This document shows positions 1 through 19,853 of a stretch of DNA of 45,748 nt, piece after piece. The position numbers and the translations under genes are program-made. Position 1 is the stretch's first letter. The number at the start of each line of letters is the position of its first letter. The stretch covers positions 1-45,748 of the forward strand of contig JALAIB010000025.1 in NCBI GenBank assembly GCA_023645945.1, given 5' to 3'. The notes beneath the pieces were generated by a model. That model had not been told where the DNA came from, did not search any database, and saw only the letters and a program-made list of their open reading frames with translations. This DNA is from Diploschistes diacapsis (taxonomy: Eukaryota).

Positions 1-70
1 AAGTAGTAATAATAGTAGTAGTAGTAATTATGGTGGTAGTAATATTAATAATAATAGTAATATAATAGTA
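1..70. repeat. AT-rich degenerate (TAG/TAA)n low-complexity tract
   Basis: aagtagtaataatagtagtagtagtaattatggtggtagtaatattaataataatagtaataatagta: mixed TAG/TAA/TGG triplets with almost no C. It continues past the window edge. Confidence 0.75.
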
Positions 71-119
71 GCACGTAATGCCAATAACTGAGTGCTGACC
101 CCATTATTCAAGTCATATA

Positions 120-329
120 ACGTGTTCCACCACTTAACGGCCCACCCCACAAAGCGGCTCACAATCCCTGCACCTTCGTAAAATGTATTTCTTAACATTT
201 TCACCTTTCATACAAATAATTTTATGTGTGGTTGTGGGGCTCAAAAGCTCGCTTAAAACTATCTAGCGCAATTACCTTATAATGTAGTGAGCCGCTTTGT
301 GGGGTGGGCCGTTAAGTGGTGGAACACAT
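120..329. mobile_element. Non-autonomous TIR element (MITE-like), probably of the Tc1/mariner-pogo (Pot2/Fot1/Tan1-like) group
   Basis: 43-bp terminal inverted repeats at 120-162 (ACGTGTTCCACCACTTAACGGCCCACCCCACAAAGCGGCTCAC) and 287-329, identical at 42/43. The left end is TA|ACGT (TA at 118-119). The right flank is TG rather than TA. The 124-bp AT-rich interior has no transposase. Confidence 0.8.
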
Positions 330-1124
330 TGCCCTAAACAATCATACACTTACCAAGGATTTTACCCAGTCACTGATCCTTGTTGTTCTTTTCATCCTCC
401 AGCTTCTTCACCTGCAAAATGACCCCCTTTCTATGTTCCTTCGACGCCTTGATAAGGTACCATCCAACATGCAAAACCTACGAGGTACCCCGGCACGGAC
501 TATTCCGTACTACTCCGTATACGTGGTGCCTTTACTCGAAAACCACAGCCACAAAGGACTACTACCTACTTACTACAAGTCTCGCCGATTGACAGTGTGT
601 ATGTACAGTACGAAGTAGGTATGTGGATGGTGGATGGTGGATGGTGGCTGATCTACTGCCACTACCACCTCGTGCTGCAGGTCCGGGCTGAACCTAATAG
701 CAAGGCACCACGAACACTCACGGACTATACTGTGCTCTTTCCTTTTACGACGCTGCTTGTGGTACAGCTCGTTGGAAGTCGTTTCGGATGTTGTGTTCCC
801 ATGCTGCCTCAAGCTGCCCAATCTCTTCGTGCTGTTGTTGCAGAATGCGAGAGCATCTTTCGAGGCTATGCGCTTCATCTTCGGGCTTCGATATATTATC
901 TAGGTTGTATGCTCTCGTGTCTTCTCCATCAACATTTCTCCTTTAGCATTGTTTCCTAGATCACCTTTACCTTTTCTTTGATTCCCTTCTTTACCCTTCT
1001 CTTAAAACTTCTTCAGCCTGTCCCGGCTAGCACATCGAGTCTCCTGGCGAGCACGGTGTTTCGCTTCTAAATCTCTCTTCAAAACAAAAGACATAATCGC
1101 AACCTGAACCGGACATCAGTCATC

Positions 1125-1326
1125 ATGAAGGGCGCTCTCCAGACGTCGGCAATCCTCCTGCCTTTGATCCTATCTCTTCCCGCGGAGGCTGTTCCCAAAA
1201 GGGGAAAGGCCAGTGGCGGCTCCAGCAGCACTCAGGGCGGGAACCAGGTGTCGACCAAGTACGATTTTTCAAAAGACAAGTTTGGCGATGGCGCTACCTT
1301 GAACATCCCCACCCAGTAAGTTTCGC

Positions 1327-1361
<35 letters not shown>

Positions 1362-3088
1362 GCTATTTCGGACTAACTGGTCGCAGGAATGGCATCAAGG
1401 GCGGAAACACCGTGAGCCGACGAAGCCTCGAAGACTTTGACCTTTACGTTCGCGAAGCACTCGCCGAGCCGAAGAAGAAGAAGTCGGGTTCGACAACATC
1501 GGGCGGCAACCAGGTGCAGACAACCTATGAATTCAATAAAGACCAGTTTGGCAACAATGCCGTCCTCAATCTCGGTGTCCAGAACGGCGTGCAGGGAGGA
1601 GGAACCAAAGGCAAGCGGGCCATTGCAGATCTCGAGCTTTTCATTCGGGACCTCGAGGAGGAAATCCTGTATAGACGCGAGGCCGAGGCCGAGCCTTTCC
1701 TCAACGGCGGCGCTGCCAAGGGCGGCGACAGTAGGACCAAGGGCGGCAATCAGGTAAGAACTTATGAAAACACCCTCGGCAGACCATATACTAACCACGC
1801 TTGGCAGATCAAGAACAACAACAGTGCGAAAGGGGGCAGCTATGGGCCCGGCACGACGATCAACATGTCAAACCAGAACCAGCAAACGGGAGGAAATACT
1901 ATGGGTGGCAAGGGCGGCGCGAATACTGGCAATGGCGGCGGTGGAGGAGGTTTCTCCATGCCCATCCAGATGCCGCCCTTTGTCCGACGCTCGCTCGACT
2001 ACTCAGAGGCCCACGAGGGAGGCCTGAACCAAATCAGCACGCATCACCGCTTGGGACCCAACGGAATGAGTATGCACTCGACTATTCGTCAAAAAGGTGG
2101 GAACGCACAAGGTCGCGACGGTGCCTCGAATTCCGCCAACGGTGCGGATGGCAAGAGCGTTACCCTTCCCACCCTTCACCTTCGCCGCTGGCTCGAGATC
2201 CGCGACGCCGAGGCTGAAGCATTGATGGACGGCGGAGGTGCCAAGGGCGGCGACTCCAAGTCCAATGGCGGTAACCACGTAAGTTCATAGGAGATCCATT
2301 TGTTAGACCCCAAGTACTAAGCACTCTGGACAGATCAAGAACCACAACAGTGTCAAGGGTGGCAAGTACGGCGCAAACTCGAATATCCAGATGGGCAACC
2401 AGAACATCCAGAACGGTGGAAACACCAGGGGTGGGAAGTACGTTTGAATCCCGCAGGTCAGGAAGGCTCTCGTACTAACAGCGCGCAGTGGAGGGATGAA
2501 TACGGGCAGCGGAGGTGCAGGAGGAAGCTTTTCGATCCCCATGCAGATGCCGCCCATGCGACGCTCGCTCGAGTATCTGCGGTCACGCGACGCTTTTGCG
2601 GAACCCGAGCCCTTTTTGAACGGCGGCGCCGCCAAGGGCGGTGACTCCAAGACCAAAGGCGGGAATCAGGTATGAACCCGGAGGCTTGGAGCTGGAAGGA
2701 GTACTAATACGTCTGGCAGATCAAGAACCACAACAGCATCAAGGGGGGCAAATACGGCCCCGGAACTACCATCTATGCCGGTAACCAGAATTCGCAGGTG
2801 GGCGGCAACACAAAGGGAGGCAACGGCGGCGTCAACACCGGCAACGGCGGAGGAGGAGGAACTTTCTCCATGCCCATCCAGATGCCGCCCTTTGCCAGAC
2901 GCTCGCTCGACTACCTAGAGACCCGGGATGCCGACGCGGAGGCGGAGGCGGAGGCGGATGCGGATATTGACATCTACTACGAGCTCTATGCGCGAGAAGC
3001 GTTTGCCGACCCCGATGCCGAGGCCGAAGAGTTCGACCTGCACGCACGCGATGCTTTCTTCGACGATGATTACGAGCTGAATTACTAG
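1125..3088 (+). CDS. Secreted Kex2-processed repeat polyprotein (KEP), ~560 aa, with Gly/Asn/Gln-rich cargo peptides separated by acidic spacers
   Basis: Exons 1125-1315, 1387-1753, 1808-2278, 2334-2437, 2489-2669 and 2720-3088 total 1683 nt and are open through all five GT..AG introns, each with a CTAA(C/G/T) branch point. Signal peptide MKGALQTSAILLPLILSLPAEA. Repeated KR/RR and LxxR sites are followed by EA/DA/EP dipeptides. Three 77-78-aa repeats align without gaps. Confidence 0.9.
1331..1359 (+). repeat. poly-T homopolymer (29 nt) in intron 1 of the KEP gene
   Basis: Uninterrupted T run between the donor GTAAGT (1316) and the branch point GACTAAC (1371-1377). Confidence 0.9.
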
Positions 3089-3220
3089 GCCAGAGTTGTT
3101 GCGGTCGGTCAGGGGACAGCGATGTTTGGAGGGGGTGGCGAGAGCTCGTTACTCATGCATCGCATTGTGTACGTGAGCGGCGTTGGCTCTCTTTCTTGAC
3201 TTGTATTTAAAGCCTTGCCC

Positions 3221-3490
3221 ACATAATTCAGCAAAAATACCTCGTTCAGAACCAGGCTGCCTTCTGCGCACGTCATGCATCATGTCCGGCACTTGCTGCA
3301 TCAATTCTGTCTGTCTGTCTGTCGTCCTAAGAAACCATACTTTTTGACAGGTTTCACTTGAGCAGTTGGTTGTTTCAACATAATTCAGCAAAATAGAACT
3401 CGGCTGCCTTCTGTGCGCGCGTGTGCACACGCCCGTGAATCTTGTCTCTTAACGTCCCGTCTGCCGTCCTAAGAGACGATACTTTTGAAC
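3221..3490. repeat. Degenerate tandem duplication (~140-160 bp period) in the intergenic region between converging genes
   Basis: ACATAATTCAGCAAAA...GGCTGCCTTCTG at 3221 and 3378. GTCGTCCTAAGAAACCATACTTTT (3321) versus GCCGTCCTAAGAGACGATACTTTT (3463). Confidence 0.7.
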
Positions 3491-3892
3491 GAGTTTTCGC
3501 TCGAAGAAGCAGCTTGGTCGACCAAAACGTCCGAGGCGCCTTTCGAAAGCACTGCTGCGCGGGCCCGCACGCACACGTCCCATGACATGAGCCAGGGGGA
3601 AAGGTCCTCCAAGATAACCGCGGAGCGAGCTAGTTTTTGCACGGAGCCATCGCTCGCGAACGCTCTCCTCGAAAAAAGCGCCTCCGTCCCTTTCTGGGCG
3701 AGTTGGATGATTGTGGCCCTGTCCCCAGCTCACAGTTTGCGCGCTCGCCAAAGACGCCCAGGGGGCCCCCCCCCCCTCAGCAACTGTTTTATTATCGATG
3801 GGAAAAAGTCCTACCTGGCCGAGAGGATTTCTCGGTAGCGGCGTCTATCGAGCCCAGTCCCTCGCTGCATCCTCCTCCTCCTCCTTCTCCTC

Positions 3893-5483
3893 CTACACAA
3901 CCGTCCAAGGCCCGTCACCCGCCTTTCTCCCGGACCACAATCCTCCCCCCAGCACCCTCCTGAGCAGCACGTACGCCGACACCAGCGATCCCCGCAGCAG
4001 CGCGCCCAGCCTCCGTCCCATCGTCATCGAAGACACTCTGCCCTCCTCCTCCATTCCCATCTCCACCTCCGTCTGCATCTCCCTCTCCGTCTCCCTCTCC
4101 GCATCCCACGCCTGCCCCGCCGCCGCAGCGGCGTCGTGGCCCCACAGCCACGGCTGGAACACGGGGTCGGCCCACGCGTTCGGGTGCCCGTCGAAGGGCG
4201 CCAGCGCCATCAGCCGGTCGCGCTCGCGCTGCTGCGCGCCGTCCGGGAAGCCGTGCGTCGCGCGCATCGCGTGGCTGCGGCGCCGGACCTGCGTTGCGCG
4301 CGGCAGCCGGACCCGTTCGTACAGCGAGAGCACGCGCGGGAGATCGGAGGGGCGAGTGCATTTCCTGCAGAGGGCGCTCAGGGCGACGGCGTCTTCGAGG
4401 GCTTGCGCTGCACCTTGGCCCCTGGGCTCACGGTCAGCGTGACAGGGAAAAACTGAGGGAGGTCGAGGGGGAAGGGGGAGGAGAGGCTTACAGGTATGGC
4501 AGCATGCCGTGTGCAGCGTCCCCCAGCAGTGCGAAGCTGCCTTCCGGCGAAGTCCAGGCTGCGATGTCGCTGCCGCGGAACATGGTCCATTTGCGCGTCT
4601 CCTGGGCGAGCTCGAGGAGCGACCGCAGCCTGGGGTCCCAGTCTTTGAATCGCGCTTCCAGTTCTTCGATAGATGCTTCCTGGGGCCCTATTGCCGAATC
4701 GCCTTCTTTCTCGGGCCCGCCGAGGAAGACGTTGAAGAGGTCGTCTTTCTGCAGGAGATAGCTCACCACGTGCGAGTGCGGGCCGAACCAGGCGTTGATG
4801 TTGGGCGGCTCCATCAAGCTGTGCAGCTCTGGGCGTTTGCGCATGGCTGCGGCTTGCAGCACGATTCGGAAGCCCAGGTCGCCGCTTCGTAGAGGAGGGT
4901 CGGGTCTGCCGAGGAGGATCTCGCGGCATCGGGAATTCTGCCCGTCGGCTCCGATGATGAAGCTGCCGGAATACGCCTCCCCCGAGCTCAATCGAACCTC
5001 TGCTCTTGCAAAGTCGATCTCGCTCACGCCGGCGTTTAGCTTGATTTCGACGCCTAGAAACAGGGCTTCTTCGTACAAAACCCTATGGAGGTCTGCACGG
5101 TGCACGTCGAAGTGGGGGAAGCCGTATTTGTCCATGCAGTAGGGAATCAAATTCTGCCTGGAGAGCACAGAACCATCCCGATAAGACCGCAGTACAATGT
5201 CTTTTGGATCGATCGCGTATTGCATTACCTTCTCCAGGATGCCGAGATCGTTGAGAGCTCGAGCTGCATTGGATGCCACTTCGATCCCAGCACCAACCTG
5301 TGCATGCTTAGCGGAGCCGTAGTATTTGCGCCTGATGCTTAGAAGCTCACTGACCTCGCGGATCTCGTCAACCTTCTCGAGAACCAGTACTGCGAAACCA
5401 GCCTTTCGAATCCCTATCGCAGCGGCGAGCCCTCCGAGGCCAGCACCGACTATTATCGCGCGACAGGATGGTTTAAAGGTCAT
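3893..5483 (-). CDS. FAD-dependent monooxygenase (group A; salicylate hydroxylase-like)
   Basis: Exons 5483-5355, 5297-4492 and 4421-3893. Motifs: GAGLGG Rossmann fold, VGAGIE, HRADL, IGADG, LLGDAAHGMLPYLGQGAAQALEDA, and C-terminal PNAWADPVFQPWLWGHDA. Confidence 0.92.
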
Positions 5484-6906
5484 TGTCGGTGATAAGATGG
5501 CTTCTGAGATGATCCACGAGGGTACGGTATGAAGCAGGTCCTCGAAGGCACTGGCACGGGAAATGAAGAGTCGGAAATTCACTTACGCGATCTCTTCAAG
5601 GACGTGACCATCGTCTATCCGGCGAGACGTGAGACTGAGGCGCGGCTTGAAAAAGGCACAATGTCGGGCGGGCACTTCGGGTTCTCAATTCTGGAACGAG
5701 AGCATGTGGAAATTGCTTCCTATTCTTTTGTGCTTCTCTGATGCCGTTTCTGGATACACGGGTTGCAAGGCATCAACCACGCCTTGCACTGTACAGGAGC
5801 GCTCCATCCAGAAGAATGCATCCAGATGCGAGGCGCAGCACACAAAACACCTAGTGCATACTAATGGAGTGTTTTAACATTTCTGATCTTTCCATTTGAA
5901 CCAGCCTGATCTCCCATTCGGATCCTTTAGGTCTGGATTGGGGCAGGATGGTTGAAGGATCACTTGTGATACTGCGCCATGCCCTATTCGGGAGGGTCTT
6001 GAGCTGGTTATATCTATACCGAGCACTGCATCGATGGCATTCGAGGCTGTGGGATTTGGGCGCGTTTGCGCGGTACGTGGATTGATAAGCCATAGAAGTA
6101 AAAATATGATTTCTAGCAACCATGGCTCATCCGTGGATCATAGCCTTTGAGGAAGATTCCTAAGCGCACGCACCAACTCCACAAGCTCTTGTGTAGATCC
6201 GTGCTCGTGCTGCGATAGTACTGCCTGGTGGACTTGATTTCATCGTGAACCCTACGTCTGCAGTTGACGTGGTTGATGGCTAGTATCTAGGTAAAGCAAT
6301 TGTGTGTCATGATGCTACGGTAGTGGCTGGTCCTACCCTCATGTGGTTGCGAGGCGGGGCGTAACAGCTTTACAAAAACACTTGTTAAGCAGATGGTGTC
6401 GACAATCCGTTTCCGGGCTATGGAATTTCCATGCAAAAGGGGGTGTTGTCGGTTTCTGCCTTCGGCTCGGGATAAAGCAGGGCTCCCGTGCACGGCGCGG
6501 CATCAAACGTTGCATGTTGCATTCGTGGAGGATTTCGCGGTATACGCCATATTAGTGCTTAGAGACGTTGATATGATGAGGCGCATTAGAGTGCGATCCT
6601 ACGCACTTGCCAGTGCTACTGCTAGGGTCCCGAGATTATTAGCCTTGGTATCTAATTAAATTCATCAGCAACCTATAACTCAGGTCCAGCCACGGTTGGT
6701 GCGACATCCGAGTGTTACGTTGGACGTTGGGAGACTGAAAAGGTTATTGTAAGAGGATATTGGGTCAGTGAGCATCTCGCTCGTCCCCATGGTCGCTACG
6801 GCAAGTTCATCATATCCCGAACTGGCAAGCTTCATATGCTTCTAATGTTCGTGAATTGGTAAGAGAACTAGAGCCTAACTACAGCCTCAAAGGAACCATA
6901 GGCCGA

Positions 6907-7893
6907 TTACCGCCCAGCATTCAGCCGCGAGACATACTGGACCAAGCTTCCCAGCACGATACTTAGCCCAGTGAAGAGCCAAGAACCCCGGTGAAACCAC
7001 CAGGCACAGTCTGCGGGATTCTTCAAGTCTACAGTGACGACCATTGTCGCACCACTGATTGCTACACAGACACATCCAAGATAGTAAGAAAGCCCTGCAT
7101 CGATAAAGCTGCCGGCAGCGATCAGCAAGGCGACCTGTAGTAAACAGAGACAAGAAAGGAATGGCTTGGCGATAGCTTCGAAACGGATGGCGATTGACCG
7201 GACGCCCTCCTTTTTGTCGTCTCGAATGTCCTGGTGAGCATAGACAGTATCGTAGAGAATAGTCCACGCTATTCCCGAGCCATAAAGAAATGCCACGACC
7301 GGCAGAACTTGCCGGTCAGTAATCGGATCAAGGCCCATTGCGACGAAGCCCATGACGAAGCCGTAAGCCCAAGTAAATCCAAGAATGACCTGCGGGTAGT
7401 CTGTACATCGTTTCCCAAGAGGATACAAGGCAATCAGAAGGATTGATGGGATACCATAGTAGACGCATCGGAGAGGGAAGAGGTGGAATATTCCAATACC
7501 CAAAAGACTCTGGAACACGTTGTAGAGTAGTGCTGCTCGGGTCGAGATGGCACGCCGTGCGAGAGGTCTGTTCTTCGTCCTAGTGACTCGTCGATCTATA
7601 TCCTGGTCCAATACATCGTTCCACGTGCAGGCAGCACCTCGAAAGATTATAGAGCCAACGAAGAACAAGAGAGCTGTCTTGAGGACATCAATTGGGGCTG
7701 CAATAGGCTTGGTGAGAGAGGCCGCGAGTAGAGTTGCTGCGAGTGCTGGCAGGTAGAGATAGAGCGTGCCGGCAGGCTTTCCGAACCGTATGAGCTCCAA
7801 GTAGGGCCCGAAGGCTGAAGGCTTGCTGGTGCTCAACGGAGGCAGCAGCTCTGCCTTCTCGTTGGGAAAATTCATGTATGGAAATGACTGCAT
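6907..7893 (-). CDS. UbiA-family aromatic prenyltransferase (4-hydroxybenzoate polyprenyltransferase/COQ2-like), intronless
   Basis: Aspartate-rich motifs WNDVLDQDIDRRVTRTKNRPLA and YDTVYAHQDIRDD, plus PYLELIRFGKPAG and KRCTDYPQ, and multiple TM helices. Start is ATG 7893 or 7875. No obvious mitochondrial presequence. Confidence 0.92.
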   Translation of the reverse strand: MQSFPYMNFPNEKAELLPPLSTSKPSAFGPYLELIRFGKPAGTLYLYLPALAATLLAASLTKPIAAPIDVLKTALLFFVGSIIFRGAACTWNDVLDQDIDRRVTRTKNRPLARRAISTRAALLYNVFQSLLGIGIFHLFPLRCVYYGIPSILLIALYPLGKRCTDYPQVILGFTWAYGFVMGFVAMGLDPITDRQVLPVVAFLYGSGIAWTILYDTVYAHQDIRDDKKEGVRSIAIRFEAIAKPFLSCLCLLQVALLIAAGSFIDAGLSYYLGCVCVAISGATMVVTVDLKNPADCAWWFHRGSWLFTGLSIVLGSLVQYVSRLNAGR

Positions 7894-9063
7894 AACTGTG
7901 CAATGGTGGGAGACGACCAACGACCACTTTATTCAACGAACGTACTAGTTCTCACAATGGTGAAGTGGAAGACGAATGCTGACCGATGGAAACAGTGGGA
8001 TAGGGGGGTTAATAGAAGGAGGACACAACTCTTAGCACCTAGTTCCAGCCTAGATGTAGGCGCCGTTGCAGTTGCTCCCAGTCTGCAGATTGTGTTCTGT
8101 TACCCGGTAGTATGGGGGCCAAGAATTGCCATATATCCGAGCGTGTCAAAACAACGAAAGAGACGGGCATAGCACATGACGGTGCCTTCATGGACCCAGA
8201 GCTCGCGACATTAGAAGTCTCGCTTTGCATGGTTGTTTTTCACCATGCTTGGAGTAAGAGCCACGATCCCTATATGCAACAGTAAGAGTCCGAAAGGGGT
8301 ATTGGTTACTGGAGGTTGCTGCCTACTTGAGACGGTACCTATTCCTTCCGTGCCTTTGCGTCTTTAGATGAAGCTGTAAAAGAAGAGTCTTTATGCAATG
8401 CAACTACACCCATCTCTACTGAGCCGGGGCGTCAAGTCTTCAACTGAGCATGAGGCTGCAAGACGATAGCGCCATACCGTCACATCAGCCCGTTAGAGAG
8501 CTACCACAAGGCTTGCTCGCCCAAGAAAAACGAAGCGCGAGACAGGCAGTATAGGACGAGCGCGGTCAGAATAGCTATGCTGCACAGAAGAAGCTTTTCC
8601 CATGAAACAATCGCACACCTGTGTCCGTGCAACAAGTGCACCATCACCTCCTGGGTAACATTCTCCTGGGCTCGACTCTACTTTATGCCTTCAAGGCAGT
8701 CCAGGTCTGTGCCTCCTGGATTCAGTTAATAAGATCCTCTACAAGCCGTGCCATGGCTTCTGGCTAGACGCTCAGTGTACTGCGCCATGTCATTTGCATG
8801 CTTCTATTGTTTTGGTTTTACTGTCAAACGTGCATCCCATGTAACTTTTTTATGATGGTTAGACTGCTTTCATCCAAAGGATTCCACTTCTGGTTGTGGA
8901 CCATGAATATGGTGGCATACTTCGAGTCTCACCTTGCTTGGAAGGTGCACAGTGTATGGCATGCTAGGAGTTTCTTACAAGCTGGGGCCTTGATATTCAC
9001 CTTTTACCGCCCTGTTGTTTCTCTTCTCATTTCTTGACAGATATCGACCGTATCTATACAATC

Positions 9064-10560
9064 ATGGACGCACTGGTAGGGACATGGTCCCCAACTAGCG
9101 ATTTGAATGCTTCGCAGCAGCGAATCGTGGCTACGGTGGTGTTGATGCTGCTTCTGTCCACGCTTTTCTACGTTCTCCGATTACTGGTAAGGCATCGGAA
9201 AGGGTCAGCTTGGAAAGGGGACGACTTGTGCGCTGGTATAGCGCTGGTAAGTATTCAATATACACTCGGGCTATTAGCCAACATTACGCAGGTTCTTTCC
9301 TATGGCCCAAACATCACGATTGCAGTTGCTATATATTACGGGCTAGGCGTCCCAGAGGCTGATGCTGGCTTTCTAAATGCCCAGAAGACACTTATTGTGA
9401 GACCGTCTCGGCCCACTGCGCGGTCATATTACTAACAATCCTCAAGCTGGCCTGGGTCGAATCTCTCTTCTGGCAGCTCGCTATGCCCTTTGTCAAGTTC
9501 TCCCTGCTTCTTCTCTACGTCCGCCTCTTTCCAACCCCAGAGATGCGCCGTGCCAGCCTCATTATCGGCATCTTCGTTCTCGCGTGGATGCTCGTCACAA
9601 CCGGCGTCTTCATCTTTGCCTGTTTACCCGTACAATACTACTGGGACAGAGAAATTCCCGGTGGTCACTGCATCAATTATGACCTCTTCTACATAATCAC
9701 CGCCGCGCTCAACACCGTCACGGACGTTATCGTGCTCCTTATGCCGTTGAAAGTCGTCTGGAATCTTACTATCACACGCGCGAAGAAGATTGGGCTCTCT
9801 GTTGTGTTTTTGACCGGGCTTTTCGCCTGCGCGGCTAGCATCGTGCGCATGATCCTGCTCAACGAGCTTGATCCATATAACATTACGGGTGAGCGCCACG
9901 ACCGACATTCCATTTATTCGTAGAGAAAGAAAGACCTGTCATATTCCTGAGCCAAAGCACTACATTCGAGCTTCTACCGCTACCTGCGCACCTCAATGAT
10001 ATTTCACGCGGCCCACAATGCTGCATCTGCATTTTCCCCTTCCCTTTGCTGCTTTCGAGACGCCCCCGCTAACCCTTCCCCAACTAGGTTCCGCCATCGA
10101 CACCGCGATCTGGACCTGCATCGAAGTCTCCTCCGGCAGCATCGCCGCCAACATCCCCGTCCTCGCCCCTCTGTTCTCGCCCATCGCGCGCTTCTTCACC
10201 GGCCGCACCGGCTCCTCGGCCAGGAAGACCCCCGGAGGCGGGTACGCGCTCCCTCAATCCCAGCGCGACAGGATGGAGAAGTATGCCCGCTACGGGCGCT
10301 CCGGTGGGGGAAGCAATGGCGGGAACGGACGGGGAAAGAGAGCGGGAGCGTTGGGGAGACTTTCGGGGTTCACGACTATTGACGAGACGGTAGGGGATCC
10401 GGGCGGAAAGAGTAGAGGGTTTGGGGAGCGCAGAGAGGCGGAGGGGGAGAGGGAGAGGGAGATGGAGATGGAGATTCCGTTTGGGGCGATAGGGGTTCAG
10501 AGTGACTGGGATGTTGATTCGGTGCCGGCGCAGAAGGAGTTGTTTGGGGGGGGGCGTTAG
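9064..10560 (+). CDS. PTH11-like / fungal rhodopsin-domain integral membrane protein (no CFEM domain)
   Basis: Exons 9064-9246, 9292-9396, 9447-9888 and 10088-10560. Motifs: GDDLC, VKFSLLLLYVRLF, CLPVQYYWD..GHC, NTVTDVIVLLMP, KKIGL, ASIVR and WTCIE..IAANIP. Confidence 0.88.
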
Positions 10561-10997
10561 CCCGCTTTGTATTTCTGCTGTTCCTTTGTAGAAAATTTTC
10601 TTAATCTATCCACTAGAAGCAGGAACCAAGCTCTTTTTTTCTTTCTCCCAAAGAGATCCACGAGTTGTAAAAGCAGGTATCAACTAGGCGCCTTCATTTG
10701 CCATGGCATTGAGCTGCAGTGGACTTGAATACTATATTATAGCAGGGTTTGTAGTGAATTATTAGATGAAATCGAATGACGTTCTTGATCCGCAATTAAG
10801 ATGCATCTGCTCTCGTCGTGTAGGCCGTAGCACTGCCACGCAACTCGCGACTTGCTCCAGGTAAAATCCGAGCCCCTAGCCCATTCCTAGCCCTTGCCCT
10901 GCACATGCTCGCTAAAGAATCTTACGCCTTATAGTCAGCAGAGGCAATGGCCCATTACAACGCGCCATAGATGGACATCTCGAAAGGATATTGAAGC

Positions 10998-13757
10998 TCA
11001 CTGCTCAGAATTTGAATACCAGTTCCCGTACGGCATGCCGTTCTGCGCCTGCCCCATGGAGAAGCAGTCGTGGAAGTAGGTCCCCATCATGTTGCCCTCG
11101 GAGCCAAAGGCCGAGCACATGGCGTGCTCCAGCTCCGGGTCGATCGTGTGCTGGTAGGGCCCATCCATGCTGTAACCGCTTACGTTTGCGAAGTCGTGCT
11201 GGTTGGGGTAGTATGGCTGGGTCTCTGTCACGTAGGGCTGTGAAGCGTACGAGTTTAGTTGGTTGTACCAGCCCTCTTGCGGCGGAGGTGCTTGATGGGG
11301 CTGCTGATGCTGTAGCCGAGACACTCGCGATTGTGGTTGTTGTTGTTGTTGTTGAGCAGGACAGACTGGCTCGTTCGAAGCGACCTCGCTTAGGATACCC
11401 AGGGGAGTGCCACCGATCTGCGGAGTAGGCGCTGAGGCCTTGCGATGTGAAGGTGGGGCTAGAGTGTCCGGTTTGGGGTGGATAGCAGGCGATTTGGAGG
11501 TTGGCTTGCCATCCGAGTTGGTCTCGCTGTGCACAGATAATTTGCGGTAGCCTAGTCTGGGGGTATTCCTTTCGCTGTCGATAGGCTCCGCTGGAAGCTG
11601 TGAAGGATCGGGCCCTTCTCTTTTTAGTAGCCTCGCCTTTGGTCCGTCCCGCTGCCTCTCGTACCAAGATTTGAATATTCTTAGCACCATCTCGAATTTT
11701 TGTACTGCGGGGTTGTGGTCGTCATGGTTTGAAGCTTGCAGCTTCTGCATGATTCGGTTCAGGTACTCGCCGACAGGCATCGAAGCTAGTTCTCCGGGGT
11801 TATTTTGCTTTCTCACGGAGCCGGTCACCCGAAGGTTGAGGAACATCAAGAAGATGATCAAGTACGTAAGTCGGGTGAACCACAGGCTGGGCAGGGCATC
11901 CAGATGGTCCTGTGGGATGGACAGAAATATCTCAAGAGCATCCTGCATCGGTTCTGGGGAGGGCATAACAGCCGTGAGTGCTGTGTCCGACATGGGCTCA
12001 CCATATCTGTAAAGGAAGTCCTGCTTGGACTCGGCTGTCGGAGGTACCGAACCATTTGATTCTCCTAAACTAGTGATCATGACTTGAAGGGACGAGAAGT
12101 AGATGAGAAGGAATTTGTACATGAACCTAAGCGAATCTAGTAGGCATCAGCAAAGGAGATGAGAACAAAACCAAGCTACCACTTACAGGAACCCGACGCT
12201 TCGATATCTGGTCCATTCAGCTGTGTTTGTTTCTCAAGGTCGGTCAAAGCCCGTGAGATATCGATCGCTGTTCCTTCCTTGAAGAATAGCCCAATCGCCT
12301 GGTCATAGATTCTTTGCAGTTTGGCCATGCGGCACAGAATTATATCTGTTGATGCCGCATCTTCGGCATTCTCAAGCACCTTGACTGCTTCGTCCATGAA
12401 CCTGCTCCAGTGAACGGTGTTCTGCTGCTTGAGGTTCGTGGAAGAACTACAGTACATTAGAATGGCCCATGGTGCCGGAAAGGATAGACACTCACATTCC
12501 GCTCAACAGGAAGCAGCCAAGCAAAGCTCTCTTCCTCTCCACCATAAGTTCCTTCTTTTCTGAAGGCAATCTCGACGCATTCCTGCCTAAACCAAACCCG
12601 AGTGGGGTGGGGTGGTTCTCATGGATGAATTTGATGGCCACTCCCATTGCTGCGGCCATCTGAGATAGCTGGAAGGGCCTCGTATCGTTCTGATCCTCGG
12701 CAAAGTGCCAAGTTGTCGATATGTGCATAGCTTGGATTAGCTCCAGTGACTTTTCACCCTTGTTTACAACGCGATCAGCGTACGTTTGCATGATCTCCCT
12801 AAGAAGGGTCCGCTGTATGTTGGAATGCTTGTGTCCAGAAGCCACACTCAGGATCGCTAAAAACAAGATGGGCCTCTCCCTTCGAATGTCGCCAACTGTG
12901 GCACAAGGAGGTATGACCACGGCAGGCAAGTACGGAGCCATATGCTCTCTGTAGTAGTTGAACATCTCCGCAGCTACCGCAGAGCTCAGCACCTGACGAT
13001 CAATCACATCCGCGTATTCGTGATTCTGGAAAGAGTTTTCGAGAGGAAGAGGTGCAGCAAGGGCGTGGTTGAGGGAGGCTGCCGCAAGTTGCTTCGCGCT
13101 GTGTCCGAGATGACTTGAGCTTGACAGATCCTGCCCCCTCTCGAACGTAGACCTTCTACGCTTCCGGCTGGGCTTCGCATCCGACAGCATCGGATCATGA
13201 GGCTCGAGAGAGTTCTCGTCAAGCTCGTCCTCGTCCTCGCCGAGTTTAGCATTGTTGCCCTGCACAGCGACCAGGGAGGCTGTCAATGCATCGATTTTCT
13301 TCTCCAGCTCTGCGACCTTGTTGTCTGCTTTCTTCTTGCGTTTGTGGCTCGGCTCGGTGAAGATACAATTCCTATCTGCTTTGGCGCATCTCTTACACGG
13401 GCCCGTCATGGAGGGGTCGCGCTCGCATCTAACCTTGAGGGCGCGACAGGACTCGCACGACCGGGGCCGTTTTTGAGCATCTTGTCCATCACCTTTCTGA
13501 TTCGGTGACGATATAGCGATATCTAGAGTCTCCTCGCTTGGAGGTAATTCCGGCTGTTTGGCACTATAGTAAGGGAGGTTAGGATCTTGTGATATTGAGG
13601 GGAGAGTTGAGCTCTGCTGCTGAGGAGGTGGTAATCGGCGGATTGGGTTCAGGGTGTAGGGCGACTGCGCGTTCTGGGGTGGAGGATATCTGTAGACGTC
13701 TGAGTATGGCTCCAAAGGCTTCTGCTGGCTGCGAAGCTGGGGATCAAGGGCCTCCAT
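10998..13757 (-). CDS. Zn(II)2Cys6 transcription factor with fungal TF middle region (WAR1/PriB-like)
   Basis: CESCRALKVRC..PCKRCAKADRNC zinc cluster, coiled coil VAELEKKIDALTASL, and PILFLAILSVAS middle-homology region. Three exons match ORFs 12492-13757, 12176-12457 and 10998-12122. Likely start MEALDPQ at 13757. Confidence 0.9.
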
Positions 13758-14521
13758 CGACCTTCGTCTGCCTCGTCTCGATTTTTCAGTCGGCAAGTAC
13801 GGCGCCGACTCACCGACCGGTAAGGTACCACAAAATAGAGCTCCAAGGCGGGTCAAGAATATCAAATAACTTTGTCTAGATGTCCCCTTTGGCAGTAGCA
13901 AACCCGAGAGCTTACTTAGTTGAACTCATGCGTCCCATTCTACAAAGCTGCCAGATAATCGGCTATGATGGATCTGGAGAAAGTTCACGGCCGGGGTGGA
14001 ACAAGGGGTGTTCCAGTTGCATCATACGCTAAGCAGCGTACAAAGATAACTACTTAGAATACCTTTCGACGGGCTATTTTTCTACAACAGTTGCTGCGCA
14101 ATGTCCTAACAGCTGTGTGTGTAATTGCATAGAAGTATAGAGGATCTTATTTACAAGATGAGCCCTTTTCGGCAGACGCGCTATTTGTTCCGGGATTGTA
14201 TGGCATGAAGAACTTACAGCTTCATATTCAAGTAAATATATTTCTATGCAAAAGACTCCCTGAGCCCTAGCCTCACTCTCCCTTCAACCGAGCTTCTTTA
14301 GTAGCTGAACACATTTCTAAGCCAGCTGGTGTAGATTCGACGTTCTATTCTCCATAGCTGCAACGAATCTTAAAGGGTTTTGTGTCTGCACACTCTCTCT
14401 TCCCTGAGCCGGGGTTTGCACCGTTTCAGCTCTTGATACGGAACAGTGCTGTTGCTTTGGCATGCTGATCTATGCTTCTTTACCTTACCCTTGATTCTTT
14501 ACCACATGCTCTGACATAACT

Positions 14522-14845
14522 TCAACCAGAGCTCACAGGTGGGATGATGGCTACCTCATCACCTTCCGCAATTATTGAGCTGTCTCTAGCTGGGGTCTGT
14601 AGCTCCTCGACATCTGCAGAAACCGAGCTTTTTTCTGAACCAATATCAATGTATTCTAGGTTCACAGTAACCAAGCAACTGTTGAGTACTTTGTCCTTGA
14701 ACCCACGGTATCTCTGCTCGAGTACATCGAAGAGCTTCGCCGACTCGAGAGGTGCGGGGAGAAACTCAGACATCTTGCGAGTGTAGGAGCTTGCGGAAGC
14801 GAAGTAGAGGATCGTGAAATGCCCAGCCGGAGCTTTAGGCGTCAT
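14522..14845 (-). CDS. cnxG: Molybdopterin synthase sulfur-carrier (small) subunit, MoaD/ThiS fold
   Basis: FTILYFASA N-terminus, VTVNLEY, and C-terminal GDEVAIIPPVSSG. 107 aa, single exon. Confidence 0.9.
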   Translation of the reverse strand: MTPKAPAGHFTILYFASASSYTRKMSEFLPAPLESAKLFDVLEQRYRGFKDKVLNSCLVTVNLEYIDIGSEKSSVSADVEELQTPARDSSIIAEGDEVAIIPPVSSG

Positions 14846-15440
14846 GATGACCTAGGGCAATCTACACGAAATAATCAGCTGAGAAAACAAACTTGTGTTC
14901 GCTGCTAATACGTGAAAAAGTAAGATCAGAGAAATAGAGATTTTCTGCAACAGCCTGACGGCTACTAATAAGATAATACATGCTGTTAATTATTTGACTC
15001 ATCACATAGACGAAGCGCAGATGTAGATATTCAAGTCAACTCACCTCCTAGAGATCCAGCTTCGTTTAGACTCAAAACGTAGTCGATATATCTCTATCTA
15101 TATGCTAGTGAGTGTAGAAGCGGATATCCATCGAGGAAAATTTTGATGATCTGCTTAGATGGATTACTAAGCTCGCTTATCTGTAACTTATCCAAACCCC
15201 TTTCGGCTTGTTTCAGCCCTGGGTGGTGGTTCGGTTAGAAAGGTGTATGATGCTCTGGCAAGACTTAACGGGCTTTGACTACGGAGAGAGTGCTCAACAG
15301 AGACATGAAATAAGAACTCTTGATGAAAGAATTTATGCAAAGAAATAGTATGTGCAAGAAGCGAAAACTATGTACAACGAGTAAAAGCCCTAAATATCCG
15401 CAAGAATCGAACCACTCTCATGCTTTCCTACAACACCCAT

Positions 15441-16807
15441 CTATGCCGTGAATGGAATCTCCCTCTTCTTCTTCGCGGCCAGGTCAGACGCGATTCCGCT
15501 CAGGAATCCGCTGTTTGCGTAGGCCTGGCTGGCATCCCACATCATAACGCCGCCGAAGCTCGAGAAGGTCTCGCTGTAGCTGATGACTTGCTGAAGCTGG
15601 CTCGCGCTTTCGTATCCGCTACCCGCCGCGGTCGGACCCGCGGGGACACCGAGCATGAGCTTGACGTTCGGGTTCAGGCTGACGGTCTTGGCCCAGTTGT
15701 CCCAGGTGCTGAAGTCGAAGTTGTTCTGCTGCGAGGCGCCTGGCACGTAGGATTGGCTGCCACAGTAATTGTTATAGAACTGGATATTAATCTGCTGGAA
15801 GTTAGGCCGAGTATTCGTGACTGGTGAAGTTACACCGTCGCTTACAAAGTCAAAGGGAACAGCACCGTCGAGCATCTGGTTATCGGCATAATCGGGATAG
15901 GGGCATTGCGGAGCAGCGGAGAGGTAGAAATTACGGCCCGTTGACGAAGTTGCGGAGTCCATTAGCGAGCGTAGCTGGTTGCCGAAGGTAGCCATATTAT
16001 TGACGGTGGCCTCGAAGTCGAAGTCAAAGCCGTCGATCGAGGCGGAGCCGAATGGCCGGAGGGCAGAGGATCCGACTTGCTGGGGCCCGAAGGTCTCCCA
16101 GAGGAGGTTGGCACCTGCAATCGCAGCGCTGCTGCTGGTGAAGCCGCCTTCGGTATAGGTGGCACCTCCAACCGAGAGCATGATGGTTTTACCGTAAGCT
16201 TGCTGGCAGGTCTGGATGTCTTGGCTAAAATCAAACGTTAGACATCAGCAAGATAAGCAAGGTGAAGAACACGTACGCTATTTGCGGGCAGTTGAGCAGC
16301 TGAGTTCCATCGAACGTTGTGCCTGATCCTGTTAGTTTTGAAAGCTGGCATCCGCAAGGTTGTGGAACCAACAATCGTTCCCAGCATTTGCAAAATTGAC
16401 TTCTGGCTGACCGCCTTGTCCATTGATCATGGTGAGGAAGGCCATTGGAATGACCTAGCATGCAATGTTAGTGGAAGTTTCGTTAGATCTGTACCGTACT
16501 AACGTCGATATCGCTGTCTATGCAGAACTGTGTCAGCGTGGACTGCCCAATACTTTGCCTTGGGTATCTGTTGACTTACTGGCACAGTAATAAGCTAGCC
16601 CCTGTTGCTCCAGGGTTCCACTACCCTGACCATAGGAATTTTGGCCTATGATAGTTTACTTAGCACCATGGTGTATCTTCTATGGTTCTACTTACCCCAG
16701 TAGACAACCACGTTAGAGCTCGACGAAGGGTTGAAGCCAGCCAGCACTCCTTGAATGGAGGCAAGCCCAGCGGCGGCCACTGCAAGGGTAGAGAACAAGG
16801 AAGCCAT
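15441..16807 (-). CDS. Secreted GH18 class III (Cts1-like) endochitinase, multi-exon, without Ser/Thr tail or chitin-binding domain
   Basis: Signal peptide MASLFSTLAVAAAGLASIQGVLA followed by GFNPSSSSNVVVYWG|QNS. Also SVGGAT, catalytic DGFDFDFE, SAAPQCPYPD, IQFYNNYC and FGGVMMWDAS. Confidence 0.93.
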
Positions 16808-19177
16808 GGTGGAAATGAGGATGAGTCGTGCTTGTTCTTCCCAGAGTTTGAGAGACTGTTGACAGTATGCAGTTGTGAACCTGCCATTGTCGGGTACATG
16901 GATGACTTTATACTCTCAAGGCTTTCCCTACACCTTCCACTCGCTCGCTCCTCGAGTCCCCTGTCGCGACAAGAGGACGTGACACGGCAAACAGCGGCCA
17001 CATGAACTTTGATCTTTCTTCTCCGGTAGACGGAAACTGTCGAATAAGACAAGAGTCTCCATGGCTTCCGCGCGACTCAGGGCATTCAAAGGCATGCAAG
17101 ACCATCCTGGTGCTTCTTGGGTGCCTCCGGAAGGACACCCACTCGCGAGCGGTATCAAAGAAAAACTGAAGGATGTATTCTTACAGGGAAAGGAAGTGTG
17201 ATACAGCTATCGGATGGAGAAGCAAGGTGAATGTAGGCCGGCGAATGGCAGCGACTTGCTTTCACCGGGACGATCCCAGAGTGGCCGCTTAGGACCGTTG
17301 ATCGGCATTGTGCAGTAGAAGGGCAACATCAAGAGCAGATGCAAGATAGCCTCACGCGATAGCCAGATAAAGAGCTGTTGAGCTAATGTGTAGTCTCCCA
17401 GGAATGCTTAGCGACGACTAGTGCATGCAAGTCAGTCATTCGGCCGGCGTCATCTTGACTGGGTTGCATGACTTTTAAGCTTAATTGTTCTTTGAACCTT
17501 GTCCTTCTTCGAGAAGCCATGTTCACCTGCCCAATAGAGTAGGTTTCTACCGTGCGCAAACTGCATGGTCAAAGGCGCAACGTCCCAAAGGAACGAAGTA
17601 CATCAGAAATGTTTTTGTAGCTTCATGAAACCATCACAGGTACGTTATGGCGCGTTTCGCAAACACCAGAGCCTCCAGAGGGAGATTGCGCGGCGTCGCG
17701 CTGATCGTACGATGGCTTGTACCACCATTCCTCTATTATGCTTTCGGCATGCTCATGTAGCTCGCCATATATTGGTTGTCGCGTGCAAGAGCAGCCCTCG
17801 CATGCACTTGGGTTGCGATCAAGAGCTCGAGCATTATCCATCAAGCTTGGGGTCTGAACGCTACCCTAGCACAGGGTTCAATATGAAAGACTTCCGTTTG
17901 CCGGGCCATCTGCCCCGAAGCTGATAGAAAGCGCTGATCATAAGATGCAAATGCCAGAGCAGGAGTTGATAACCAGACACGACGTCCAGGATCATGAACG
18001 CGTTAATTGAGAACCGCGAGGGCCGAATCCAAGCTCAAGGGTGTCCTCAGCCCACCATCAGCATGAGCTCGATTCGACGAAGGCTAGCACGAGGATATAT
18101 TCGAGAAGCATGAAAGGCACGCGCACAGGAACTAAGGTCGGAGCAGATAAGGGTTTAAGTTATCGCTTGAGCTGAGTAATCCGTGCACCATTTCCGTATC
18201 AGGTTAGTCGGAAACTCTTCACCTAACCACTTCTTCAATTTTGTATCCTTGGGGTTGAGATAACAAGTTCACAAATTGTCTCGTGATTGGGGAACATCTT
18301 AGCCCGAGCCATTCCTGCCAGTATCTTCAAGTTATCTGAAACTATGGCAAGTATCACGGCTGCTTTGATGCCCGCGTCGCACTCGCAAAAGTGGATAGAG
18401 CTTCTACCGACCATTTGACACCATCTCCGACCATCAGGTACTACGCTACATACCATTGTGCGCAGGAGACTAGAGTATCGAGATGACCACGAGGAATCGC
18501 AAACGCGGAAAGAACGGATCCCAAGCTCTGTTCCCCGGACCTTGACCACAAACTGCAGTGAGTTTGACTTGTCCCTGTCGATCACTTTTCAAGTTTCCTG
18601 TGCTGAAGAACGTACTTTCATTAGTCAACTTTGACAATAGAGATTTCCAAGATACATATGGGAAATGCTGGATGTGTTGTGCAGAAATCACTCAGAACCA
18701 AGCCATAGAGGCCTTGGAAACGGTTGATGGCAGAATAGTAGCCTTCACAAATCGCACCATATATTTCGTTTTGATCTCAGAACACTCATGATAATCCCTT
18801 GAAGAGTTCTCCGGGGAATCTCAGACTCCCTAAACACAACTCCATGCCTATCTTTTTGTGACCGAAAGGTAAGTCTCATATATGGTGCCTTCCTAGATGG
18901 GTACGATATAAAATAGGACTCCAGGGCATTGTCTATCCCAAAGAATCCAGATTGCCAGAGGTCTTCCCAGTGCACCAGCACAAGGCTCCGACTAAATAGC
19001 AGCAGGGATCCAGCAGCCCTGGACACGCACAACGAACCCATCCAAAGACCTTCCTACCTAGGTCATCATATGCAACAGCGGAATAGGTTCATCTTGCTTG
19101 TACTCGCAAATTCTTCTACTGTTGCCACCAGCTTCCATCCTATTCTCTCCTCCCAGAAACATCCCTTTATTTACATG

Positions 19178-19853
19178 TTAGGCGGCAGCGTCTCGAAAGT
19201 TCGGCGCAATCTCCGGCTCCCACTTGTACTTGGCTTTCCCGTAGATCTCGGCCGCGGACTTGAAGCCGAGCGAGCCCTTGACGTCGAGCAGGCCGGTGCG
19301 GGCGATGAGCTTGTCGCCCAGCACGGCCTGGTGGTGGTAGGCGTGGGTCGTGCGGTTGGCGCAGTAGCAGCAATGGAGGGGCTTGCCTGATAGGGTAGGG
19401 TCAGTCGTCGGATGCCGCGGCATGTTTTGCTTGGGTTCAGTATGGAAGATATGCTTGTTTCTTGTGATGTTGTTTTGCGCGCACTAAGATACAGTCAGAA
19501 GAGGCTTACCAGAGTCTCCCTGGTAGGTGTAAGCCTTTACTATGCCTTTGGTGATCTCGAGGTCGTTTTTGTCGATGATCTTGTTGAGGGTGTAAGCGCC
19601 GCCTGAGAGCTACTTGCAGGTGTTGCAGTGGCTAGACCCAGGGAATTGGTCTCTATCTCTGAGGTCCTGACGTCGAGAACAGGACTTTAGGGCCCAGAGG
19701 CACGCCGATACTTGACTCGATTCAAAGAGTTCTTTTCTTTTGCTCGTATGGGGCATGGGAGAAAGGACCTTCATACCAGAGAATGTGCTCAGGCTGAACC
19801 TTAGCTGTCCACTCCACTTCGCCGCAATGACACTTTGCTTCGTAACTCGTCAT
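19178..19853 (-). pseudogene. GFA / Mss4-like (glutathione-dependent formaldehyde-activating family) pseudogene
   Basis: Spliced model MTSYEAKCHCGEVEWTAKVQPEHILC|HCNTCK*LSGGAYTLN...GDSG|KPLHCCYCANRTTH... has an in-frame TAG at 19610-19612. A CxxC-type ligand appears replaced by Arg (CANR), and a frameshift is likely near the C-terminus. Confidence 0.75.

Follow-up and report, generated by a model that had tools for sequence, protein, structure and literature searches.

Structure of the gene and its product

We analyzed a DNA stretch of 45,748 nucleotides (nt) from Diploschistes diacapsis (contig JALAIB010000025.1, assembly GCA_023645945.1), and the whole stretch is referred to as the window. 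A gene at 1125-3088 on the + strand of the window encodes a polyprotein of 560 amino acids (aa), which is predicted to be secreted and to release six peptides. It is likely that the product is a pre-pro-polyprotein without net charge and that it belongs to a lineage-restricted, unnamed family of Kex2-processed repeat proteins, as judged from the features described below. An earlier, sequence-only reading of this DNA had proposed the gene with five introns, and its coordinates turned out to be exact. Comparison with relatives confirmed a genuine six-exon gene of a lichen-forming fungus, of which transcription and splicing are predicted. The gene model comprises the following elements.

1125..3088, +: whole gene, ATG to TAG, 560 codons (reading of open reading frames and splice sites; junctions checked against relatives)
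1125-1315, 1387-1753, 1808-2278, 2334-2437, 2489-2669 and 2720-3088, +: six exons (splice model)
1316..1386, +: intron 1, 71 nt, phase 2, with a run of about 29 T, within short unit S1 (relative P0025 stops 3 residues beyond the junction)
1754..1807, +: intron 2, 54 nt, within long unit L1 after GGNQ (splice model)
2279..2333, +: intron 3, 55 nt, within long unit L2 (the three copies of repeat family D2 all reach the donor)
2438..2488, +: intron 4, 51 nt, donor GTACGT, in L2 only (P0017 and P0023 read through here into ...YV...)
2670..2719, +: intron 5, 50 nt, within long unit L3 (splice model)

The ATG at 1125 is the first one past an in-frame stop at 1068-1070, and the stop codon TAG lies at 3086-3088. 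The spliced length of 1683 nt corresponds to 560 codons with zero internal stops. All five introns carry a GT[AT][AC]G donor, a CAG acceptor and a branch site of the form CTAAC, CTAAG or CTAAT. Introns 2, 3 and 5 occupy the equivalent position in the three long units, right after GGN-Q/H. Intron 2 is stop-free and in frame, and its retention would insert 18 aa, whereas leaving intron 1, 3, 4 or 5 unspliced breaks the frame or introduces a stop. The DNA repeat families D1-D5 recover the three long-unit copies and the two short-unit copies. The T run of intron 1 (about 29 T at 1331-1359) exceeds what is usual in fungal introns, and length errors or polymorphism are likely there.

Aligning the protein with 36 relatives by BLASTP revealed that most high-scoring segment pairs cross the predicted junctions without gaps (within ±8 aa): 18/31, 39/50, 35/48, 40/48 and 31/40 for junctions 1 to 5, respectively. 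Meanwhile, five fragmentary database proteins (P0025, P0021, P0017, P0023 and P0003) stop or carry an insertion at the intron positions of the window gene. This correspondence was read by eye, and the conservation of the introns is judged from these fragmentary proteins only. The first 14 residues of P0025 are identical to the window protein, and its sequence ends three residues past the intron-1 site. P0021 terminates directly after GGN-R. P0017 and P0023 continue as ...YV..., matching a read-through of the GTACGT donor of intron 4. P0003 carries 16 additional residues at the site equivalent to intron 1, though in its second short unit. Several of these short database proteins have the appearance of wrongly annotated fragments of this gene in relatives. 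No DNA of relatives was recovered from the scanned metagenome contigs, and no paralogue was found elsewhere in the window, where the top match has an E value of 0.004 and 23% identity.

The product is free of Cys and has a single Trp. Its predicted segments are given below, with net charges.

1125..1190, +: 22-aa signal peptide with MK, a hydrophobic core and A-E-A (hydropathy; layout repeated in relatives)
1191..1417, +: V-P, KR and short unit S1 (48 aa after KR, net +2), spanning intron 1 (homologous to S2)
1418..1471, +: RR, an acidic spacer ending LYVR, then EA-LA-EP (sequence anatomy)
1472..1612, +: short unit S2, 47 aa, net +4, with four Lys at its start (sequence anatomy)
1613..1696, +: KR, an acidic spacer of 20 aa that includes LFIR and LYRR, then EA-EA-EP (sequence anatomy)
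1697..1984, +: long unit L1, 78 aa, net +5, spanning intron 2 (unit comparison)
1985..2188, +: RR, variant unit V (64 aa, net 0, 5 His), RR (conserved in P0006, P0013, P0014, P0015 and P0022)
2189..2221, +: spacer WLEIR, then DA-EA-EA (sequence anatomy)
2222..2558, +: long unit L2, 77 aa, net +4, spanning introns 3 and 4 (unit comparison)
2559..2612, +: RR, a spacer ending LRSR, then DA-FA-EP-EP (sequence anatomy)
2613..2896, +: long unit L3, 78 aa, net +6, spanning intron 5 (unit comparison)
2897..3085, +: RR and an acidic tail of 61 aa that holds no cargo (net -20), with three LxxR, X-Ala runs and an aromatic-acidic end (sequence anatomy)

The signal peptide was judged by inspection: the 9-residue Kyte-Doolittle mean reaches its maximum of 2.84 at residues 10-18, followed by A-E-A, and relatives have the same layout. 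The three long units make up 233 of the 560 residues (42%) and contain about 29% Gly and 13-16% Asn. They align pairwise without gaps, with 49/77, 64/77 and 53/77 identical residues, a similarity that chance could not produce, and the dibasic-to-dibasic fragments that hold them measure 84, 88 and 94 aa. The two short units share 22 of 41 residues. On the basis of the family alignment and a shared predicted hairpin, they are the counterpart of the central part of the long units. The cargo carries a total charge of +21, and the remainder after the signal peptide carries -21. The sequence-only reading had described a signal peptide, an alternation of cargo and acidic spacers, and gapless repeats of 78, 77 and 78 aa. 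All three descriptions held, and every peptide segment that it quoted is present in the spliced protein.

An unnamed family in lichen fungi

An exhaustive phmmer search against 1.84 billion cluster representatives returned 25 relatives at E<=1e-3, of which 15 reach <=1e-10 and 6 reach <=1e-30. A word-indexed search returned 17 relatives, of which 7 carry organism names; all 7 are from lichen fungi and are annotated as 'hypothetical protein'. They come from Trapelia coarctata, five Xylographa species and Lambiella insularis (Ostropomycetidae, Lecanoromycetes). The lichen-only distribution is based on few named genomes. Relatives longer than the window protein did not appear in a search for longer ones.

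None of the 17 word-search relatives has a precomputed Pfam domain, and four pieces of the window protein matched zero Pfam families at E<=1. Searching 18 relatives (P0002, P0029-P0035 and others) against Pfam at E<=10 gave sub-threshold matches only. Among these, DUF596 appeared in 7 of the 18 relatives with a best E of 4e-4, and the matches probably reflect composition. A sequence-profile search of the PDB gave no meaningful match (best E 0.16). These results agree with the earlier statement that the cargo lies outside recognized families. No description of the family was found in the open-access literature on lichen secretomes, Kex2, Kex2-processed repeat proteins and glycine-rich secreted proteins. 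Judged by these comparisons, this is a conserved family without a name or a Pfam model, and its named records are from lichen fungi only.

All full-length relatives are built alike. They have a signal peptide, short units (one or two), long units (two or three) and acidic spacers, and their acidic tail closes with an aromatic-acidic stretch. The long units are about 50% identical across orders. The most conserved stretch is FLNGG.AKGG.S, the predicted mature N-terminus. The sequence-only reading took the fourth cargo for a divergent, shortened copy of the long repeat. However, five relatives (P0006, P0013, P0014, P0015 and P0022) keep this variant unit with the same motif, and by this conservation it is a third unit type rather than a decayed copy.

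We also notice a terminal stretch rich in Tyr, Phe, Asp and Glu after the last LxxR and Asp/Glu-Ala in 18 of 18 full-length members (3050-3085 in the window). This aromatic-acidic stretch could be an additional small released peptide or a sorting signal.

Signatures of probable proteolytic processing

Two kinds of site flank the cargo, and we first describe the linkers that precede it. Across 22 family proteins, 34 of 43 long-unit starts have an Arg or Lys followed by a perfect (X-[A/P])n linker upstream. The linkers vary in length from 0 to 28 residues, and the two-residue register is nonetheless maintained. Of the 18 linkers of at least 4 aa in the non-redundant set, 14 are perfect; shuffling the residues of each linker would yield 0.35. 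All four linkers of the window consist of X-Ala/X-Pro dipeptides directly ahead of the mature peptide. Such a drifting sequence with preserved periodicity fits what selection for a dipeptidyl aminopeptidase substrate would predict.

The residues ahead of the linkers are also constrained. Collecting every Arg with at least two X-Ala/X-Pro dipeptides after it gave 114 sites in 37 proteins. At position P4 of these sites, Leu occurs 78 times, Ile 17 times and Phe 12 times (107/114), although the three residues together make up 12% of the family composition. Lys or Arg occupies P2 at only 4 of the 114 sites. LxxR has been reported as an extended Kex2 motif in the pro-domains of fungal effectors, in the accessible part of that study (PMC8528282). 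The 12 [L/I/F]xxR motifs of the window protein all end in spacers, in the tail or in a closing RR, and the 41 long units contain none inside.

In contrast to the N-side, a dibasic pair closes every cargo. Adjacent basic pairs number 0 in the 41 long units, which total 3221 aa and include 204 Lys and 44 Arg, while 16.4 ± 3.8 are expected and 0 of 2000 shuffles were as low. The 24 non-redundant long units likewise contain 0, against 9.9 expected. Together, these counts indicate a consistent usage across the family, with extended LxxR motifs plus dipeptide runs as the putative N-side sites and dibasic pairs as the putative C-side sites. The sequence-only reading had invoked KR or RR followed by X-Ala/X-Pro as the processing code. 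The dibasic sites and the dipeptides do recur in register across relatives, and the code stands at the C-side ends and in the linkers. The predicted N-side cuts instead follow [L/I/F]xxR and mostly lack a basic P2.

The first unit requires separate comment. In relatives, the residues after the signal peptide are X-Pro or X-Ala followed by Lys-Lys, such as F-P-K-K, Y-A-K-K or I-P-G-P-K-H, which suggests dipeptide trimming immediately after signal peptidase. Because of these starts, S1 of the window may begin at KR rather than after it. The segment given for this first cargo in the sequence-only reading is present, and its start may need to be moved to KR.

Several observations weigh against this account of the processing. 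Nine of the 43 linkers are imperfect, mostly through an extra Gly or Gly-Gly ahead of the conserved start or through a search pattern that is one residue off. The N-side sites mostly have no basic P2 and hence rely on the less well-tested LxxR specificity. Since a unit was ended at the first [K/R]R, or at Arg then D/S/G/W then Leu, after residue 40, the absence of [K/R]R beyond residue 40 is partly built in, whereas that of KK and RK is not. The variant unit of the window has no LxxR or dipeptide run ahead of it, which leaves its N-terminus ambiguous.

The protein might instead be secreted uncut, as an intact Gly-rich repetitive protein of the wall or matrix in which the acidic segments are linkers. 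Repetitive Gly-rich wall proteins are common. Nevertheless, an uncut protein leaves four features unexplained: the strict X-Ala/X-Pro periodicity in linkers that range from 2 to 28 residues, the Leu, Ile or Phe at P4 in 107/114 sites, the dibasic ends of every cargo, and the total avoidance of basic pairs inside the cargo. We regard an uncut protein as very unlikely, and favor a processing route by signal peptidase, by Kex2 at RR/KR and LxxR, by Ste13 and by Kex1. Given the features above and the analogy with the alpha-factor pathway, this route is probable.

Selection, charge and predicted structure of the cargo

Comparing the three long units pairwise gave synonymous divergence (dS) values of 0.98-1.15, which are saturated, and ratios of nonsynonymous to synonymous divergence (dN/dS) of 0.14-0.26. 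The ratio for S1 and S2 is 0.30. Since dS is saturated and dN/dS is low, the copies appear to be old, each kept by purifying selection. In a tree of 41 long units, built on 81 columns and with many forks open, the units group mostly by lineage. Pairs or triplets of units from the same protein have starred support for P0012, P0004, P0009 and P0010; the three long units of the window cluster with weak support. Separate clades of first and second units occur within Xylographa only. Deep orthology of first and second long units across orders was considered and is ruled out by the grouping of units by lineage. The pattern fits repeated lineage-specific duplication or homogenization.

Every full-length precursor is net neutral or acidic. 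The long units are 71-82 aa in length (median 79) with a net charge of +2 to +7 (mean 4.7), and 41 of 41 are cationic. The full-length precursors have a net charge of 0 to -17 and close with a tail that holds no cargo, 32-98 aa in length and -11 to -30 in net charge (18/18 for both). The acidic parts offset the cationic cargo throughout the family.

We further predicted the structure of the relative P0026 with AlphaFold2, using an alignment of 18 sequences. The mean predicted local distance difference test (pLDDT) score was 38.6 and the predicted template modeling (pTM) score was 0.27. In this model, only one beta-hairpin per unit exceeds a pLDDT of 50 (53-63). A predicted complex of four long-unit copies scored 0.02, which speaks neither for nor against self-association. 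The cargo may be mostly disordered or without an assignable fold, and such a poor model favors no role.

These properties bear on the possibility that the peptides are released by the same processing and are structural, with self-assembly on the hyphal walls or in the thallus matrix, as for the repellents of Ustilago. Hyphal surface layers are important in lichens. The composition of the units is of low complexity and rich in Gly, Asn, Gln and Ser, their length is tightly kept (71-82 aa), and Gly is unchanged throughout the family at many positions. Each unit also has one predicted strand-turn-strand hairpin at a conserved Gly-Asn-Gly turn, a motif that we take to resemble curli repeats. Rep1 offers a precedent, in which a Kex2-cut precursor gives 11 wall peptides, as stated in the accessible text of that report (PMC3133707). 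However, 41 of 41 long units are positive and the precursor invests in neutralizing acid, for which a wall coat has no obvious need. The Pfam curlin repeat and other amyloid families were unmatched in 18 relatives at E<=10, and curlin also in the window pieces at E<=1. In addition, the confidence of the model is insufficient to claim a fold. We rank a structural role second among the readings, possible but less likely than not.

Genomic neighborhood

Downstream of the gene, we observed the following features.

3248-3354 and 3395-3496: diverged tandem duplication of about 145 bp in the 3' flank
4491-5582, -: FAD-dependent monooxygenase (Pfam FAD_binding_3, E 1e-8)
6910-7932, -: UbiA-family prenyltransferase (Pfam, E 5e-45)
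9363-10557, +: fungal rhodopsin-domain membrane protein (Pfam)
12495-13925, -: Zn2Cys6 regulator (Pfam)
14525-14851, -: ThiS-like small protein (Pfam)
15444-16244, -: GH18 chitinase (Pfam)
21882-24593, -: cyt-4-type mitochondrial RNase (RNB) (Pfam)
40819-41835, +: Ada3 (Pfam)

The two copies of the 3' duplication belong to the repeat families D6 and D7, are 82-84% identical and have a spacing of 142-147 nt; they could represent a duplicated terminator or a segment of the untranslated region. The best named relatives of the cyt-4-like RNase are from Circinaria, Xylographa, Trapelia and Stictis, lichen fungi of the Ostropomycetidae, with 36-39% identity, and other records reach 49-51%. These relatives place the window in a lichen-forming ascomycete of the class Lecanoromycetes. 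The monooxygenase and the prenyltransferase could be a fragment of a secondary-metabolite cluster, and their link to the peptide gene is a candidate only.

This arrangement, 1.4-4.8 kb downstream of the peptide gene, raises the idea of a peptide that is ribosomally made and modified post-translationally (RiPP), of the ustiloxin or dikaritin type, whose repeats would be cores modified by the clustered enzymes. The signal peptide and the Kex2-flanked repeats are shared with such precursors. Yet DUF3328/UstY was matched by 0 of the 69 other open reading frames of at least 85 aa in positions 1-20,000 of the window, where the view upstream of the gene is 1.1 kb and small exons can be missed. The cargoes are 47-78 aa in length and Cys-free, and lack a short conserved aromatic core. 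Moreover, a survey of lichen clusters reports, in its accessible part, UstY-linked candidate precursors without repeats, unlike this type (PMC12048977). A RiPP precursor is therefore highly improbable here.

The neighboring genes also bear on a role in communication, in which the processed peptides would act as signals or effectors sensed by the fungus or by the photobiont during lichen formation. The named members are exclusively from lichen-forming fungi so far (7/7), and conservation is highest at the predicted N-terminus, FLNGG.AKGG.S. One catalogue, in its accessible part, considers many Kex2-processed repeat proteins to be signaling peptides (PMC6339444). On the other hand, a receptor gene is absent among the genes seen in the 20 kb downstream. 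The peptides of 77-82 aa, in a family with three unit classes, far exceed the length of known fungal peptide signals, and the lichen-only distribution rests on few named genomes. We consider a signal or effector role improbable.

Proposed maturation and role

On the basis of these features, we propose how the precursor would mature. The 22-aa signal peptide would bring the protein into the endoplasmic reticulum. In the late Golgi, a Kex2-type convertase would cleave after the RR or KR at each cargo end and after the [L/I/F]xxR with which each acidic spacer finishes. A Ste13-type dipeptidyl aminopeptidase would then strip the X-Ala/X-Pro dipeptides, giving conserved N-termini such as FLNGG, and a Kex1-type carboxypeptidase would trim the trailing basic residues. 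The predicted products are six Cys-free, Gly/Asn-rich peptides: two short ones of 47-50 aa, three long ones of 77-78 aa with charges of +4 to +6, and one His-rich variant of at most 64 aa. During transit, the acidic spacers and the -20 tail may counterbalance the +21 cargo.

We tentatively suggest that the most likely role of the products is that of secreted, Gly-rich cationic defense peptides, made in several copies per transcript. Such a role, proposed by analogy, would make the precursor a fungal parallel to the multipeptide precursors of ant hymenoptaecin and bee apidaecin. The sequence-only reading had named Gly-rich antimicrobial peptides and a surface or fibril protein as candidates, and these are the two leading readings here. 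Against defense stand a low charge density, at about +5 per 78 aa, the scarcity of hydrophobic residues, and the unit identity of about 50% across orders, which exceeds the conservation of many defense peptides. A more specific proposal, which we hold to be possible but less likely than not, is that these lichen-restricted peptides are secreted in bulk and police the bacteria, fungi and algae of the thallus. The precursor would then be the first fungal counterpart of the hymenoptaecin type, of independent origin.

Lichen fungi are hard to manipulate genetically, and little is known of what they secrete into the thallus. The family supplies concrete predicted peptide ends, which can be sought in lichen extracts by mass spectrometry. 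The predicted peptides are also short enough for synthesis and for assays of antimicrobial activity and self-assembly. In addition, the family provides a clean natural case of the extended Kex2 motif (LxxR) combined with the Ste13 code.

Comparison with known systems

Fungal Kex2-processed repeat proteins (KEPs) are the class into which the window protein falls. By the rules of Umemura 2020, it has a signal peptide (by inspection) and at least three repeats of 8-100 aa between KR, KK, RK or RR (PMC7329392, accessible part). By those of Le Marquer 2019, it has at least three similar fragments after KR or RR, and repeats cover 42% of the protein against a threshold of at least 15% (PMC6339444, accessible part). 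With KEPs it shares the signal peptide, at least three dibasic-bounded repeats and the Ste13 signature. It differs in four respects. The family cargoes, at 77-82 aa, come close to the maximum of 100 aa in the definition, the window precursor mixes three cargo classes, the N-side cut follows [L/I/F]xxR instead of a dibasic pair, and a long cargo-free acidic tail is present. Xylographa, Trapelia and Lambiella do not appear in the accessible part of the strain and KEP tables of Umemura (PMC7329392).

Closer comparison is possible with individual fungal precursors. Maturation of alpha-factor begins with Kex2 cleavage after a basic site, Ste13 removes the Glu/Asp-Ala dipeptides, and Kex1 trims. The prepro-alpha-factor of S. 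cerevisiae (MFalpha1) follows the same three-enzyme logic as that proposed here, but its cargo is 13 aa in length against 47-78 aa, and no glycosylated pro-region is evident in the window protein. The Pfam families MF_alpha and MF_alpha_N were unmatched by the window pieces at E<=1 and by 18 relatives at E<=10.

The repellents of Ustilago maydis are released by Kex2 and form amphipathic amyloid fibrils on aerial hyphae. Compared by description only, their precursor Rep1 differs in its basidiomycete origin and in its amphipathic peptides, in contrast to the Gly/Asn-rich cationic ones here. Likewise, Ece1 of Candida albicans differs in its hydrophobic helical peptides of about 30 aa, one of them a cytolysin, and in having no Ste13 spacers. 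The likeness of both lies in the precursor: that of Rep1 is secreted and cut into many medium-sized extracellular peptides (PMC3133707), and that of Ece1 is processed by Kex2 and Kex1 into several peptides (PMC12153327), as the accessible parts of these reports describe.

The closest architecture belongs to an animal gene. The hymenoptaecin precursor of the ant Camponotus floridanus contains six Gly-rich antimicrobial domains of 97 aa, each flanked by EAEP and RR, and its authors propose a route by Kex2, Kex1 and a dipeptidyl aminopeptidase, as stated in the accessible part of their report (PMC3415428). Both precursors have a signal peptide and multiple long, Gly-rich, Cys-free cationic copies separated by RR/KR and EAEP-type spacers. 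In both, acidic parts offset the charge; in the ant precursor one first domain diverges from the rest, and copies of the domain group by species, as do the lichen units (PMC3415428, same part). The bee apidaecin precursors group with hymenoptaecin as a similar multipeptide design.

The two precursors also differ. No similarity between the ant gene and the lichen family was detected in the libraries searched, and they are compared by architecture only. The lichen spacers are longer and carry LxxR. The ant repeats lie in one exon according to the same text (PMC3415428), whereas an intron splits each lichen long unit. Antimicrobial activity is known for the ant peptide, while the lichen peptides are known from sequence alone. 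The fungal precursor and the insect multipeptide precursor would thus be a case of convergence.

To the sequence-only reading, the gene product looked like an undescribed secreted multi-peptide system. The family indeed appears to be uncatalogued and is unnamed, but it is less novel than this implies, with both KEP definitions covering the window protein and an animal precedent at hand. Since the catalogues already contain thousands of Kex2-processed repeat proteins without an assigned role, the system is not of a new kind. What appears to be new is an unnamed conserved family with unusually long cargoes in three classes, with the use of LxxR and dipeptides on the N-side, and with a dedicated acidic tail.

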